From: Kiritimatiellia bacterium
GTDB lineage: Bacteria > Verrucomicrobiota > Kiritimatiellia > RFP12 > JBMNHG01
Direction: 5' to 3'
Length of the DNA stretch: 64,000 nt
NCBI GenBank assembly: GCA_050950285.1
Contig: JBMNHG010000008.1
Location: forward strand, 1-64,000
The position numbers are program-made. How positions within the stretch are numbered: position 1 is the stretch's first letter; each line of letters begins with the position of its first letter. Shown in pieces: positions 54,201 to 60,200 of the stretch.

Positions 54201-57200
54201 CCTGATCATTGAACAGGACGGAACGCTTTACCCGGTTGAAATCAAGAAAGGCGCCACTTTCAGGCCGGATGACACGAAATCCTTTGGCGCACTCAAGCAG
54301 TTCGACAAACCGGTGGGGATGGGGGCGCTGGTCAGCCTTCATCCCGAACTGTTTCAGATCAGGCAGGACTGCATGGCCATCCCCGCCGTGCAATTGTAGC
54401 GCGAGGATGCAGGCGCGGGGGTTTCTCGCGCAGAGGCACAGGGGGCACAGGGCGTGCAGAGGGGGAGCGCATGGGGGGGGGATGGGGAGGAGGAGGGACG
54501 ATTATTGCGACCACTCAGTGGCTCGCAATTAAGAGTGTAAAAGCCCTGCGCTGCCCTTGCGCCGCGAAATAGTCCCGAAGGGGCGGCCTCGTGCGCCGGT
54601 GCCAGGACAAGCGAATCGCCATATCGCTGGATAGCGCGCCTGATTGCGCTGTGCCATAGCCCCGAAGGGGCGGCCTCACCATAGCCCAGGGCAAGCGCAG
54701 CGCAGCCCTGGGTTTAGGAGCGCATAGGATCGTGGCCTGAAGGGCCACCTCAAAAATGGGCGGACGCGGCTTAAGGTGCCCCTTCAGGGCACGTGGATGT
54801 GGGCTGACATAGCCCCGAAGGGGCGGCCTCACCATAGCCCAGGGCAAGCGCAGCGCAGCCCTGGGTTCAAGAGCGCATAAAATCGTGGCCTGAAGGGCCA
54901 CTTCAAAAATGGCCTGACGCGGCTTGAGGTGCCCCTTCAGGGCACGTGGATGTGGGCTGACAAAGCCCCGAAGGGGCGGCCTCACCATAGCCCAGGGCAA
55001 GCGCAGCGCAGCCCTGGGTTCAGGAGCGCATAAAATCGTGGCCTTAAGGGCCACTTCAAAAATGGGCCGGACGCAGCTTGAAGTGCCCCTTCAGGGCACA
55101 TTTTTGCTGGCTGCGCTACCCAGGGCTGCGCTGCGCTTGCCCTGGGCTATGGTGCATCCGGCCCGTTGGGCCGGCGGCGCGGGGCTGATGCCCCCGCCCC
55201 GTACCATGATGAGCCGGCCCGTTGGGCCGGAGGGGCGGGGCTGACGGCCCCGCGCACAGGGGGCGCATGGGGTGTTTTTGGAATGAACGATTATTGCGAC
55301 CACTCAGTGGCTCGCAATTGAGAGGGTAAAAGCGCTGCGCTGCCCTTTCGCTGCGAAATAGCCCCGAAGGGGCGGCCTCGTGCGCCGGTGCCAGGACAAG
55401 CGAATCGCCATATCGCTGGATAGCGCGCCTGATTGCGCTGTGCCATAGCCCCGAAGGGGCGGCATCACCCTAGCCCAGGGCAAGCATAGCGCAGCCCTGG
55501 GTTCAGTAGCGCATAAAATCGTGGCCTGAAGGGCCACCTCAAACATTGGCCGGACGCAGCTTGAGGTGCCCCTTCAGGGCACGTTGATATGGGCTGACAT
55601 AGCCCCGAAGGGCGGCCTCACCATAGCCCAGGGCAAGCATAGCGCAGCCCTGGGTCCAGATGCGCATTTAATCGTGGCCTGAAGGGCCACTTCAAAAATG
55701 GCCTGACGCGGTTTGAGGTGCCCCTTCAGGGCACGTGGATGTGGGCAACGCTCCCCGGGGCTGCGCTTCGCTTGCCCTGGGCTATGGTGCATCCGGCCCT
55801 TTGGGCCGGAGGGGCGGGGCTGATGCCCCCGCCCCGTACCATGATGAGCCGGCCCTTTGGGCTGGAGGCGCGGGGCTGACGGCCCCGCGCACAGGGGGCG
55901 CATGGGGTGTTTTTTGGAATGAACGATTATTGCGACCACTCAGTGGCTCGCAATTGAGAGGGTAAAAGCGCTGCGCTGCCCTTTCGCTGCGAAATAGCCC
56001 CGAAGGGGCGGCCTCGTGCGCCGGTGCCAGGACAAGCGAATCGCCATATCGCTGGATAGCGCGCCTGATTGCGCTGTGCCATAGCCCCGAAGGGGCGGCC
56101 TCACCATAGCCCAGGGCAAGCGTAGCGCAGCCCTGGGTTTAGGAGCGCATATAATCGTGGCCTGAAGGGCCACCTCAAAAATGGCCGGACGCAGCTTGAG
56201 GTGCCCCTTCAGGGCACGTTGATATGGGCTGACATAGCCCCGAAGGGCGGCCTCACCATAGCCCAGGGCAAGCATAGCGCAGCCCTGGGTCCAGATGCGC
56301 ATTTAATCGTGGCCTGAAGGGCCACTTCAAAAATGGCCTGACGCGGTTTGAGGTGCCCCTTCAGGGCACGTGGATGTGGGCAACGCTCCCCGGGGCTGCG
56401 CTTCGCTTGCCCTGGGCTATGGTGCATCCGGCCCTTTGGGCCGGCCGGCGCGGGGCTGACGCCCCCGCCCCGTACTGCCCTTTCGCGGCGAGGCACCATT
56501 TTTGTAAAATCACCTTTTTGGGGTTGTCGGATGGCCCTCGATATGGTAATTCTGGCCGTTCGTTTGGCCCGGTTGGGCTTTGGAATTGGAGCCTGCGGCG
56601 GCGATCAGACGGTTTCTCGGACGGATTCCCTCTTGTCGCCCGCAGCTCTGTTTCGTACTATACTGATTCATGCCAAAACTCTTCGAATACTTTGTGCTAA
56701 TCATTGTACGGAGACTTCCATGAGCCTGTCGCCTGGGATTCCCGTGGACATTGTGAGAGCCGAGTACCTCGGCGAGCATCGGTTGCGCCTGACTTTCAGC
56801 GATGGGCATGTCACGACGGTGGATTTCGGCTCGTTTTTGCGTGCCGCATTACACCCCGATGTTGCGAAATATTGTGATGAGAGCCTGTTTCGCGCCTATA
56901 CCTTGGCCTATGGCAATCTGGTCTGGGGTGACCATGAGTTGTGTTTTCCCATCGCGGATCTCTATGCGGGGAAGATCGATCATCGGGACGACGCGGATGG
57001 CGTCCAGGCGGTCGCGGAAACGCATGCGGCCTATGTTGAGGAAGAGAAGTGATTTTGGACGCGGGTTTGAAGTGCCCCTTCAGGGCACGTTGTTGTTGGC
57101 TGACGCTCCCCGGGGCTGCGCTGCGCTTGCCCCGGGCTATGGTGCATCCGGCCCTTTGGGCCGGTGTTCCGCGAGCCGATGCTCTGGGTCGCGAGCGCAT

Positions 57201-60200
57201 GGGAGCACGGGTTTTCCAACCCGTGCCACGGACAGGAATGTCCGTGCCCCTGTTCCTTGGACGCATCGCCGGGCGTGCGTTACCCAAGCCCCGAAGGGGC
57301 GGCATCACCCTAGCCCAGGGCAAGCGCAGCGCAGCCCTGGGTCCAGATGCGAATTTAATCGTGGCCTGAAGGGCCACCTCAAAAAAATCCAAACCCCAAC
57401 CCAAACCACCACCAACCTCGACCGCCGGATGAACTGACCATGCCGCAATCCTTTTTCGAACTCTACGCGCACGTGGTATTTTCCACGAAAAACCGGGAAC
57501 GCTGGCTGGACGCGGCGATCCGCGACCGCGTGCATGCCTATCTGGCGACCGTGATGCGGAACGAGGGGTGTCCGTACGTGCATGTCGGCGGCGTGGAGGA
57601 TCATGTGCATCTGCTGGCGGGGCTGGGCAAGCAGGTCGTTCTGGTGGATCTGGTGGGCAGGGTGAAGCAGGAGAGTTCCAAGTTCGTGAAGACGCTCGGC
57701 GAGCGCTACGCGGGGTTCTACTGGCAGGCCGGCTACGGCGCGTTCTCGGTCGGGCCGACCCAGCGGGAGGACGTGGTGCGATATCTGGATCGGCAGGCGG
57801 AACATCATAAGCGGCGTTCCTTTCAGGAGGAGCTGCGGGCATTTTTGGACAAGTACGGGGTTTCGTATGACGAGCGCTACATGTGGGATTGAGGTGCCCC
57901 TTCAGGGCACGTTTTTGCGGGCTGACATAGCCCCGAAGGGGCGGCATCACCCTGGCCCAGGGCAAGCGCAGCGCAGCCCTGGGTCAGGGGCGAATGTGAT
58001 CGTGGCCTGAAGGGCCACTTCAAACATTGGCGGACGCGGCTTGAGGTGCCTCTTCAGGGCACATCGACGCTGGGTGCAATAGCCCCGAAGGGGCGGCCTC
58101 ACCCTAGCCCAGGGCAAGCGCAGCGCAGCCCTGGGTCAGGGGCGAATGTGATCGTGGCCTGAAGGGCCACTTCAAACATTGGCGGACGCGGCTTGAGGAG
58201 CCCCTTCAGGGCACATTTTTGCTGGCTGGCGCCACCCGGGGCTACGCTGCGCTTGCCCCGGGCTATGGTGCATCCGGCCCGTTGGGCCGACGGCGCGGGG
58301 CTGGTGCTCCCGCCCCGTACCATGATGAGCCGGCCCATTGGGCCGGCGGCGCGGGGCTGGTGCCCCCGCCCCGTACCATGATGAGCCGGCCCGTTGGGTC
58401 GGCGGCGCGGGGCTGGTGCCCCCGCCCCGTACCATGATGAGCCGGCCCGTTGGGCCGGCGGCGCGAGGCTGGCGCCCCCGCTCACGGGGGGGGCACAGGG
58501 TGTTTTTGGGGATGGACGATTATTGCGACCACTCAGTGGTTCGCAATGTAGAGGGTAAAAGCCCTGCGCTGCCCCTTCGCTGTGCCATAGCCCCGAAGGG
58601 GCGCCCTCACCATAGCCCAGGGCAAGCATAGCGCAGCCCTGGGTTTGGTAGCGCATAGGATCGTGGCCTGAAGGGCCACTTCAAACATTGGCGGCCGCGG
58701 CTTGAGGTGCCCCTTCAGGGCACATCGACGCTGGGTGCAATAGCCCCGAAGGGGCGGCATCACCCTAGCCCAGGGCAAGCGCAGCGCAGCCCTGGGTTGC
58801 GGGAGGCCCGAGTCCGCTCCAAAAATCGCGTTTCCCAAAAATCGCGTTGAGAATGGCGGGAGAAAAGGGTATTCTTATGGGTTCTATCGCGGAATCTCTA
58901 CGCGATCCACCTGCTCTTTTGAATCCAAACGACATGAAGCATTCCAACCGACCCCCAAAATCTCCCGCCTCCAAGGTCGCGATATCGACCCCTTCGGCGA
59001 AGACCGTCCGACATAAGCCGGCTGCCGCCGCCGAGACCGGCGCCGCCGAGACCGCCGCCGAGACCGGCGCGACGCCCCCCGTTGGAGAAGAATCCGTTCC
59101 CGTGGAGGCCGATGAGCGCGTGAAACAGCTTGAGGACGATTTGGCCCGCCTCAAAGACGCCCACCTGCGCCTGATGGCCGATTTCGAAAACCATCGCCGC
59201 CGCAACGCCCGCGAACGCGAAGAACTCGTGAAGCGCGCCACCGAAAACCTGATGGAGTCGCTCCTCCCCACCCTCGACGCCATCGACCTCGCCATGAAGC
59301 AGAAGCCCGAAGGGAACGACCCCTTTGCCCAAGGGATCGTCATGGTCTTCGACCTTCTCCGCAAGGGTCTCGAAGCTGGCGGCCTCAAGGCCATCGAGGA
59401 CGCGACCGGCCAGCCCTTCGACCCGCAGTTCCACGACGCCGTCGCCACCTCCCCCTCGCCCGATGTCCCCGAAAACGCCGTGATTGAACAGACCCGCCGG
59501 GGCTACCTGCTGAACGGCTGGCTCCTGCGCGCCGCGCAGGTGGTGGTCTCCAGCGGCGCAACCGAAGAGGATGCCCCCGACGCGGATGCGGACGACGCTC
59601 CGGATGCGTCCGAGGGCTAAGGGGAAAACGCCATGGCTGCAAAACGCGACTATTACGAGGTGCTGGGCGTGTCCCGTACCGCCACGGCCGACGAAATCAA
59701 GAAGGCCTATCGCTCGCTGGCGATGAAGTATCATCCGGACCGCAATCAGGGGGATGAAGACGCCGCCGAAAAATTCAAGGAGGCCTCCGAGGCCTACGAA
59801 GTGCTCAGCGACGCCGAAAAGCGCTCCCGCTACGACCAGTTCGGCCACGAGGGCATGAAGTCCACCTTCGGCCCCGGCGGATTCGACTTCAACCGCGACT
59901 TCACCCAGGGCGCCGACTTCCAGGACATCTTCGGCAGCCTCTTCGGCAGCCTCTTCGGCGGGGGGCACCAGGCGCCGCGGAACGGCCCGCGCCGCGGGAA
60001 CGACCTCCGCTACGACCTCGAAATCGACCTCGAGGAGGCGCTTTTCGGCTCGCGCCGGGATCTCGTCCTGCCCGTCACGGACAACTGCTCCGACTGCAAC
60101 GGCTCCGGCGCCGCCCCCGGCAGCAAGCGCGAATCCTGCCCCCGATGCCACGGCCGCGGATCCATCATCTCCGGCGGCGGCTTCTTCCAGATCAGCCAGC

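Follow-up and report, generated by a model that had tools for sequence, protein, structure and literature searches.

The Y1 transposase gene

The window, a stretch of 64,000 nucleotides at the start of a contig of a Kiritimatiellia bacterium (genome G000), carries a Y1 (HUH) transposase gene of 150 aa at 57440..57892 on the + strand. It is the only copy in G000, and no tnpB was found beside it. The protein contains DHVH at residues 54-57, WQ at 95-96, Y115-x3-Q-x2-HH and a C-terminal tail of about 30 aa. It matches PF01797 with 75.6 bits and NF033573 with 58.5 bits, exceeding the cut-off of 55. The predicted structure (pLDDT 96.6) has ISDra2 TnpA as its best fold (E 6e-9), and E. coli TnpA-REP matches at 3e-5. 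Among 80 homologues, Y---Q--HH was present in 76. The tail is conserved in homologue alignments A1 and A2; IS200-type PDB matches lack it and end near profile position 120-126. Judged by published sequence signatures, the enzyme fits TnpA-Y1 subclass 1.2. A class 2 RAYT is ruled out by the absence of Y---NP from all 80 homologues and by a score of 17.6 bits against the RAYT model NF047646, far under its cut-off of 80. The survey's description of the enzyme as RAYT/IS200 type is refined: it is neither a RAYT nor a typical IS200 TnpA.

RF01687 matches and the anatomy of the arm

A whole-genome Infernal search of G000 gave 15 matches to RF01687 (Acido-Lenti-1) at E<=0.001, recovering all 13 places listed by the survey plus two weak ones (C11:239628 and C2:896554). 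Ten of the 15 surround the Y1 gene at 54658-58796, every one on the minus strand, which bears out the reported pile-up; the nearest copies do lie 98 nt upstream of the ATG (57341 versus 57440) and 37 nt past the stop (57929 versus 57892). The gathering score of 37 bits is passed by four of these ten and by two distant copies, and the remaining six score 31-36.8. Hairpins A and B of the window align to the model along its full length. The best two matches in the genome (C8:572800 and 831777) belong to an arm subfamily other than the gene-adjacent one.

The real repeat unit was found to be an arm of about 90 nt with three hairpins, A-B-C, of which the Rfam model covers only A and B. The left arm adjoining the gene (57285..57381, +; 47.3 bits with the arm model, folding z -4.0 as DNA) has hairpins A at 57288-57300, B at 57314-57341 and C at 57361-57377, and the RF01687 match at 57287-57341 on the minus strand spans A and B alone. 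The gene sits between an inverted pair of arms, and gene-less units of the window have a 27-28-nt spacer in that place. Hairpin D (57890..57910, -), the inner hairpin of the right arm, is C-type on the other strand; in units lacking the gene, D is preceded by a 5-nt motif, and the stop codon of the gene falls inside it. The independent DNA runs X7 (57340-57984) and X8 (57314-57984) are identical to the window, which rules out an assembly artefact at the gene-hairpin junctions, though no listed contig spans the full array.

The array comprises 17 arms, 12 on the + and five on the - strand, and Rfam undercounts them because inverted and shortened arms escape its model. Array analysis resolved 54656..55175 into a 153-nt unit present three times (left arm, then a 27-28-nt spacer and hairpin D), with a right arm at 55079-55175 closing the series, a REPIN-like gene-less doublet with tandem expansion. 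The 153-nt period noted by the survey is thus real, but each unit holds two hairpins besides the Rfam pair and not three. The repeat census placed two super-repeats of about 635 nt (families D3, D4 and D5) at 55287..56472, each containing two left arms, a single right arm and accessory hairpins E, F and G. Enclosed by the array is a DUF2442 gene (56720..57052, +; 110 aa, PF10387 31.4 bits), with a solitary right arm on its 3' side (57068..57165, -; 45.3 bits, z -5.4). A sequence at 57196..57250 matches a different repeat family, that flanking the class 2 RAYT gene at C2:875448. Beyond the Y1 gene, 57927..58291 holds two left arms in 152-nt tandem (57927-58022 and 58079-58174) and a full right arm (58194-58291, minus), followed by four tandem units of 56 nt, each an A-type plus a B-like hairpin (family D9; 58274..58481, -) and, at 58587..58796 (+), by a left arm, a 27-nt spacer, hairpin D and a final left arm truncated after hairpin B.

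Association of the arms with subclass-1.2 genes

RF01687 (E<=1) was present in 48 and absent from 32 of 80 subclass-1.2 loci, these being the best 80 of at least 600, sharing one peptide pattern and drawn from at least six phyla; 15 of the 80 reached the gathering score and 33 of the 48 positives fell below it. In Acidobacteriota 7/11 loci had a match. RF01687 was also found in 4/10 further loci, and in 0/19 loci of other Y1 genes, a control set from one phylum. Of 104 matches, 88 lay within 300 nt of the gene, though just 24% of the flank is that close, and in 23 loci both sides of the gene had a match. A model of all three hairpins, R1, matched 54/57 held-out subclass-1.2 loci, that is, those outside its training, and 8/10 further loci, but 0/21 loci of other Y1 genes, these controls too coming from one phylum. 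At metH junctions R1 was found in 7/7 with the gene versus 0/20 without it. Per genome, and with the reservation that the compared genomes are not independent of one another, RF01687 occurred in 8/10 with a full gene versus 3/90 without, and R1 in 5/5 versus 4/35. The survey had seen homologues in two relatives; the profile finds the gene in five of 40, and arms are present at all seven of their gene loci, extending the claim that the motif brackets the gene in relatives.

The arrangement is canonical. The nearest Rfam match is on the - strand in 37/42 loci upstream and on the + strand in 24/29 downstream, and arm pairs are inverted in 56 cases versus 22 direct. Spacing is fixed as well, with medians of 21 nt from the stop and 29 nt to the ATG, and the expected orientation was seen on these two sides at 65 and 59 of the 80 loci, against 7 and 10 for the opposite strand. 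The orientation, which the survey took to vary between genomes, departs from this rule in nested doublets and tandem arrays, the window included. In 36/78 loci the gene's own left and right arms are each other's best match among all loci.

Strand, loops and pairing

Near the gene, GNA loops outnumber TNC loops 166 to 22 (29 to 18 in distal arms) and G·T pairs outnumber A·C pairs 86 to 26 (159 to 139 distally); because of these counts the strand opposite Rfam's is favoured. Rfam's own strand shows A·C over G·U pairs (10 versus 1 in hairpin A, 10 versus 2 in hairpin B) and UUC triloops. The structural constraint expected of an sRNA gene is thus not seen on that strand, and purine triloops and G·T pairs lie on the opposite one. 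Sixteen of 18 base pairs vary on both sides (compensatory changes), the pairing in helices A and C being partly built in through the choice of rows. A passage of PMC13037366 reports that, of the 64 triloops, GNA alone makes an extra-stable DNA mini-hairpin; AAC and AAA loops are common in the arms, yet outside the GNA set. The foot of hairpin B is GTAG in 1/45 and mostly YAG/YAA, and no conserved GTAG-like foot was seen at hairpins A or C, whose feet are variable. These sequence patterns suggest that the functional form is probably single-stranded DNA of the strand complementary to Rfam's.

Comparison with known systems

Subclass 1.2 was published as having no REP (Quentin, Siguier, Chandler and Fichant 2018, PMC6006769). 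The window protein and its homologues resemble that subclass in DH[IV]H, WQ, Y---Q--HH, a length of about 150 aa, the C-terminal tail, low copy number and divergent paralogues; the no-REP remark is contradicted by the arms at held-out loci, and the protein definition is unaffected. With the arms, a Y1 subclass described as lacking a DNA partner gains one. The same authors state that subclass 1.2 is not described in Bertels 2017. Nevertheless, the 'IS200 Group 3' of Bertels, Gallie and Rainey (2017, PMC5581495) is, in the passages seen, likewise without duplicates, absent from plasmids and flanked by abundant 16-mers, and is probably subclass 1.2, an earlier glimpse of it. Neither a repeat sequence, a structure nor a link to RF01687 was found in those passages, supplement included, and we found no published statement linking Acido-Lenti-1 to subclass-1.2 genes.

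As in REPtrons, REPINs and BIMEs (RAYT = TnpA-REP), a low-copy Y1 gene is bracketed by inverted hairpin repeats, with dispersed inverted doublets and mosaics, gene-specific subfamilies and strand-specific hairpins; in the REP of S. maltophilia the G of the 3-nt loop is essential (PMC8266576). The subclass-1.2 system differs in its class 1 enzyme (Y---Q), in an arm of about 90 nt with three hairpins as against one REP hairpin of 20-40 nt, and in lacking the GT[AG]G foot, hairpin B having the looser YAG/YAA. IS200/IS605 elements (IS608, ISDra2; subclass 1.1) share HUH with one Tyr and Y---Q and provide the nearest solved folds, and NCBIfam calls the window protein an IS200/IS605 transposase. Their ends, however, are two different hairpins on one strand, whereas the arms here are inverted, with polarity on opposite strands, and repeats far outnumber genes. 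An IS200/IS605 insertion sequence is ruled against by the inverted homologous arms, the lack of near-identical copies and the rarity on plasmids (2 of 72,556 records with a match). Of the survey's "REP / IS200-end type", the first half is supported and the second is not. TIRtrons (TIRYT; Di Nocera et al. 2013, PMC3733652) also join tyrosine transposase genes to terminal inverted repeats that occur dispersed, in Acidobacteria too, but their 26 published examples fall in subclasses 2.1, 2.2 and 2.5, none in 1.2, and have another consensus.

Interpretation and alternative explanations

Taking together the anatomy, specific association, canonical orientation, compensatory changes, strand bias and gene-specific arm subfamilies, we consider it likely that Acido-Lenti-1 represents the outer two hairpins of a single-stranded DNA arm A-B-C of about 90 nt, the cognate repeat of TnpA-Y1 subclass 1.2 in a REPtron/REPIN-like system. 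The founding unit would be left arm, gene and inverted right arm; its derivatives without the gene (a left and a right arm round a 20-45-nt spacer) are scattered over the chromosome, as are single arms and tandem arrays. We infer that the enzyme moves the repeat: by analogy with the biochemistry of IS608, ISDra2 and TnpA-REP, it would bind the folded hairpins strand-specifically on single-stranded DNA through the 3-nt purine loops, Y115 would nick, and the HUH site would rejoin the ends, so that arms and doublets would be copied elsewhere and arrays would grow. Because hairpins A and C are homologous, point the same way and lie 65-76 nt apart, cut-and-join between them, or slippage, would yield the observed (A-B)n arrays. 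The gene itself would move only rarely. Indeed, metH-locus genes are 76-97% identical, with synonymous clearly exceeding non-synonymous codon changes in 8/9 comparisons, and the gene has long occupied one locus even as its arms were replaced. G032 has six paralogues, 36-45% identical; of its 11 dispersed copies, six resemble the arms of two specific paralogues and five match no resident paralogue well. Divergent paralogues, each with its own arm subfamily, are REPtron-like and not IS-like.

An unlikely alternative is that arm-gene-arm is a still autonomous, slow transposon with hairpin-rich terminal inverted arms, a 'TIRtron' whose gene travels along and whose MITEs are the gene-less doublets; on this view too the repeat would be a DNA element linked to the enzyme. 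In a scan of 79 loci the neighbouring genes do differ, and operons are often interrupted by the unit (7 type I restriction loci, metH halves, DUF58-BatA). The gene is patchily distributed (10/100 and 5/40 genomes), an internally deleted gene lies between two intact arms in G088, and doublets retain their left/right polarity. In relatives without the unit the metH junctions are short and without arm remnants, too diverged to show an exact empty site. Such a transposon fits poorly with the lack of near-identical paralogues, either in G000 (single copy) or in G032, with a gene that stays at the metH junction down to 76% identity, and with near-absence from plasmids and no match in phages and viral contigs; neither a target duplication nor a precise empty site was seen, and the flanks of 40 dispersed arms showed shared neighbouring repeats and no clear target. 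More improbable still is an independent repeat family, driven by another enzyme or by recombination, whose clusters subclass-1.2 genes occupy or target. This would account for repeat-rich genomes without the gene, which also speak against the REPtron/REPIN-like reading: none was found even at E 0.01 in the two relatives richest in repeats, G502 (at least 106 arms) and G497 (86), nor in G483, G444 or G016; these genomes are 92-97% complete, the first two in 470 and 320 contigs. G502 reproduces the survey's relative with about 109 dispersed copies and inverted pairs, for which a missing gene had also been reported. G041 likewise has RF01687 and lacks the gene, and none lies near three seed-type metagenome copies within the flanking DNA examined. 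The arms also cluster with other repeat families, RAYT-type repeats included, and other small genes use the metH junction. Against this stand the fixed orientation and spacing, the mutual match of a locus's own arms, the paralogue-specific subfamilies, the different repeat of the class 2 RAYT gene in G000 and the empty loci of other Y1 genes.

Least probable of all, in our view, is the catalogued reading, in which the motif functions as a small RNA (or at the mRNA level) and the Y1 gene is a partner or bystander. Covariation is strong (scored 'COV nc' in the table of Weinberg et al. 2010, PMC2864571), G·U-type wobble would also fit an RNA of the opposite strand, and some inner hairpins precede T-rich runs. 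REP-like repeats can act within transcripts. One RNA run contained 5% of the sequence words compared, in contigs that show neither transcript ends nor strand. Nonetheless, the arms occur in both orientations, in tandem arrays and at more than 100 copies per genome, the third hairpin lies outside the model, the A·C excess and UUC triloops are on Rfam's strand, and no sigma-70-like site was found at arm starts in the window.

The REPtron/REPIN-like reading makes subclass 1.2 such a system on an IS200-class enzyme, which bears on how often HUH transposases have been domesticated; both enzyme and arm substrate are small. A bolder form, possible but doubtful, is that subclass 1.2 is a second independent IS200-type domestication in many phyla, with a composite single-stranded DNA repeat in which A and C would be the ends of a 65-76-nt peel-and-paste unit round B, recognised by DNA mini-loops without a GTAG guide. 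If so, subclass 1.2 would link IS200 and RAYT systems, the units would be among the smallest mobile ones, and paralogue-specific arms would form orthogonal enzyme-hairpin pairs.

The catalogued RF01687 family

RF01687 was catalogued in 2010 with no known function as Gene; sRNA, and in the table of Weinberg et al. (PMC2864571) it is marked RNA 'y' and not flagged 'rep', 'tson' or 'DNA?'. In the window it accounts for two-thirds of an arm with three hairpins that is linked to a transposase gene, and the relevant strand is probably the opposite one. The survey's view that the motif is a mobile hairpin repeat belonging to a Y1 transposase is supported and extends to Acidobacteriota, Bacteroidota, Planctomycetota and others: the "sRNA" looks like a transposase hairpin repeat read on the wrong strand, spreading without its gene like REP elements in many phyla. 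Testing the strand by loops and wobble pairs offers an inexpensive way to find further DNA repeats catalogued as RNAs. Even the 2010 seed is a multicopy repeat, 56 of the 87 rows listed coming from one assembly (counted by eye), and its rows share the arrayed habit of the window, recurring in tandem every 69 or 74 nt and on alternating strands. The third hairpin, beyond the Rfam model, is present in seed-type copies too.

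Structure of the repeat array round the Y1 gene

Infernal searches of the source genome found 15 matches to the Rfam sRNA motif RF01687 (Acido-Lenti-1), 10 of them located at 54658-58796 and surrounding the Y1_Tnp gene at 57440-57892, which has one copy in the genome by tblastn. Four of these 10 matches reach the gathering score. The survey's cluster of 10 local matches round a Y1 gene was confirmed, with its coordinates, gene-motif distances and 153-nt period all correct; its genome total was 13. The gene and both hairpin junctions are identical in two independent DNA runs, which rules out an assembly artefact for these parts; the number of array units may be inexact. 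In sequencing runs X13 and X15, some contig joints bypass the gene (e.g. 54446 to 58507); these were discarded, as their short sides lie in repeats at 90% likeness and other organisms contribute very high depth.

The repeat unit is an arm of about 90 nt, in which hairpin A (5 bp, 3-nt loop) is followed by a 12-nt linker, hairpin B, a linker of 20-30 nt and hairpin C, a homologue of hairpin A in the same orientation and 65-76 nt from it. RF01687 spans hairpins B and A alone, on the minus strand, and the full repeat unit exceeds the Rfam model. Arms are of left and right types, arranged as inverted pairs. Ten units in the window lack the gene, and in these a spacer of 27-28 nt separates the inner hairpins; in the eleventh, a 516-nt gene-bearing stretch with the same short motifs at both ends replaces the spacer, and the stop codon of the gene lies inside the motif preceding hairpin D, the C-type inner hairpin of the right arm. 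With a whole-arm model at E<1e-6, 12 left and 5 right arms were detected in the window (17 in all), none of them outside 54656-58821. A CRISPR-like array was ruled out, the repeat units being without unique spacers.

Class of the enzyme

The protein carries the motifs DHVH, WQ and Y---Q--HH and a 30-aa tail, which are the signatures of TnpA-Y1 subclass 1.2 (Quentin et al.). It scores 58.5 bits with the NCBIfam IS200/IS605 model (cut-off 55) and 17.6 bits with the RAYT model (cut-off 80); from the survey's label of an IS200/RAYT-type Y1 enzyme, the IS200 class is retained and RAYT is dropped. Its predicted fold is closest to ISDra2 and IS608 TnpA, with E. coli TnpA-REP more distant. The protein family numbers 3,584 representatives at E<=1e-10, among which other subclasses may be included. 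Double-domain tandem Y1 proteins of 270-320 aa, possibly fused dimers, are found among the best matches (P0002, P0005-P0007 and others). No tnpB partner was found in the window; downstream of the gene stops, there are four long ORFs among 80 subclass-1.2 loci.

Association of arms and gene across genomes

The 80 loci compared were the best of at least 600 in GTDB genomes, and their record titles name Verrucomicrobiota, Acidobacteriota, Bacteroidota, Planctomycetota, Desulfobacterota-type deltaproteobacteria, Sumerlaeota and others. RF01687 was found at E<=1 in 48 of these loci, including 7 of the 11 from Acidobacteriota, and at the gathering score in 15. Most matches (88/104) are no more than 300 nt from the gene. 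The closest upstream match is on the minus strand in 37 of 42 cases and the closest downstream match on the plus strand in 24 of 29. None of 19 loci with other Y1 genes, taken from the phylum of the source genome, has a match. A three-hairpin arm model, R1, trained on 23 arms, matches 54 of the 57 loci outside its training set and 8 of 10 further subclass-1.2 loci, versus none of 21 other-Y1 loci.

In a set of 100 genomes from this phylum, with 54 candidates scored in each, RF01687 occurs in 8 of the 10 that have a complete gene versus 3 of the 90 that do not; among 40 relatives, arms occur in all 5 that bear the gene versus 4 of 35 that do not, and in neither count are the genomes independent samples. 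One of the three positive genomes without a full gene, G088, has an internally deleted one (L152, G088:C51:3180-3310), in which the first codons are fused to the C-terminal tail, with an intact arm on each side. This is possibly a step towards gene-less doublets. A degenerate pattern for copies of the Rfam seed type matched none of 401 genomes of the phylum, a set that excludes the seed genome. In metagenomes, three short loci of this type were found with the third hairpin present, two of the three being full-length; in this small sample no gene lies near them within the available sequence.

The constrained strand

On the Rfam strand, mismatched A·C pairs outnumber G·U pairs by 10 to 1 in hairpin A and by 10 to 2 in hairpin B. 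On the opposite strand, the loops of hairpin A are GAA (41), AAA (12) and AAC (9; n=64). A census independent of Rfam, read towards the gene, gave 166 GNA versus 22 TNC loops and 86 G·T versus 26 A·C pairs near genes; for the distal flank the corresponding counts were 29 versus 18 and 159 versus 139. Sheared pairs may close AAC and AAA loops in DNA, a point given no weight here. Triloops of the form GNA or ANC are present in hairpin B in 21 of 23 rows, which were unfiltered for the loop; GNNA tetraloops for this hairpin were dropped, the aligned arms having triloops. Among 64 triloops, GNA alone is described as giving an extra-stable DNA mini-hairpin, the RNA counterpart tested being much less stable (PMC13037366, in part). 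Changes on both sides are seen at 16 of 18 pairs, in rows partly selected for pairing. ViennaRNA gives similar energies for both strands, and folding energy does not discriminate between them.

That the constrained strand is the one opposite to Rfam's is well supported by these sequence patterns. This strand likely acts as DNA, a point that is less firm because wobble pairs would fit an antisense RNA too.

Paralogues, mobility and residence

Genome G032 has six paralogues, 36-45% identical, each with distinct arms; of its 11 dispersed copies, 6 correspond to the arms of two specific paralogues and 5 match none well. G004, G502 and G497 carry dispersed doublets that lack the gene and keep the left/right polarity. 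Neither target duplication nor target motif was found in the flanks of 20 arms from each of G502 and G497.

At a split-metH junction in one Bacteroidota family, the 30 best loci comprise 8 with gene and arms, 20 without and 2 cut by a contig end. The 20 gene-less junctions hold short empty spacers (6) or other small genes (14), and arms at none. Genes at metH loci share 76-97% identity, synonymous changes outnumbering non-synonymous ones, and the arms vary in number and sequence. The metH-half junction (L043, L056, L060, L153-L182) is a hot spot for small genes, holding a Y1 unit, a gene of about 120 codons, genes of about 350 codons or nothing.

The gene was found in 2 of 72,556 plasmid records, each of about 600 kb, and in no viral contig or phage genome by single-protein and profile searches. 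At 7 of 79 loci (L040, L049, L054, L062, L066, L089, L109; a raw count), subclass-1.2 units adjoin or interrupt a set of type I restriction-modification genes. The same DUF58-BatA junction is occupied in L101 and L103 (Verrucomicrobiales and Blastocatellia), by a shared hot spot or transfer. Locus L046 has a group II intron domain at 2777-2972, some 800 nt 3′ of a subclass-1.2 gene with arm arrays. The original description of the motif reportedly remarks on group II introns near it.

Nature of the repeat

The sequence comparisons make it very likely that the motif belongs to the enzyme's DNA repeat, the REPtron-like and TIR-type readings taken jointly. By itself, a REPtron-like system, in which the gene is resident and the repeats containing the motif spread, seems probable: the divergent low-copy gene and dispersed doublets behave like RAYT/REPIN and unlike IS200. 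A TIR-type element, moving autonomously as arm-gene-arm, is unlikely. The neighbours, compared through 150 of 152 ORFs from 79 loci, are diverse, and therefore the unit has changed place over long periods; filled and empty metH junctions are too diverged for element ends to be mapped, and their comparison gave no precise empty site.

That the arms are a repeat independent of the enzyme is very improbable. Against the REPtron-like reading, no subclass-1.2 gene was detected in the arm-rich genomes G502 (at least 106 arms) and G497 (86 arms), nor in the arm-bearing G483, G444 and G016; a repeat-flanked gene may have been missed in fragmented assemblies or lost after the arms spread. Least credible of all is an sRNA. 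In the available text, Weinberg 2010 (PMC2864571) rates the motif RNA 'y', without a repetitive or transposon flag; of 87 seed rows (89 listed), 56 by visual count come from one assembly. The feature is real, and its reannotation as a mobile Y1 repeat instead of an sRNA gene, as the survey proposed, is well supported.

By analogy with IS608, ISDra2 and TnpA-REP (PMC8266576, in part), the enzyme would bind the folded hairpins strand-specifically, and Y115 would nick before strand transfer. Since hairpins A and C face the same way at a distance of 65-76 nt, joining of their equivalent sites would give (A-B)n arrays. Such arrays are found at metH loci, and the seed has periods of 69 and 74 nt. 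An identical array picture would also result from slippage between the two hairpins.

No published link from Acido-Lenti or RF01687 to a transposase was found in the literature available, with subscription titles thinly covered, nor in work on RAYT, REP, IS200 and HUH, on TnpAREP subclasses since 2018, or on IS200 and MITEs. The accessible parts of Di Nocera 2013, the Bertels 2022 preprint and Delihas 2011 do not describe the arm-gene system, and no mention was found in the Quentin supplement. IS200 Group 3 of Bertels 2017, without duplicates and with abundant flanking 16-mers (PMC5581495, in part), is probably the subclass-1.2 group. A REPtron-kind system on an IS200-class enzyme was not found in print.

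Other elements of the array and its neighbours

The array also contains 56-nt tandems that combine an A-type with a B-like hairpin, a DUF2442 gene (56720-57052) and, at 57196-57250, a repeat of this genome's class 2 RAYT. Copies of the latter family also flank the RAYT gene at C2:875448 (L187), which directly precedes an hsdR-like gene, and occur at C10:49500-49950. Repeats of two Y1 systems are intermixed in the array. Accessory hairpins F and G lie 5′ of left arms at 54502-54627, 55291-55416, 55927-56052 and 58520-58547. Within this genome hairpin F is confined to the array; elsewhere it adjoins arms in G502 and is very deep in other organisms.

An IS1634 transposase gene (51252-52994) and an AAA_14/DUF4143 ATPase gene (53155-54399) accompany the array, the neighbours of which are presumably a dnaN-like gene on one side and grpE/dnaJ-like genes on the other. 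The ATPase family is also found upstream in L039, and dnaN upstream in L080. The best two Rfam matches of the genome are solo arms at C8:572650-572850 and C8:831600-831830, which share a neighbouring repeat and belong to a subfamily abundant in G502, from a different family of organisms. A nearly identical 328-nt tandem with an arm is present at C10:49300-49950 and C11:600-1250, as a segment duplication or an assembly overlap.
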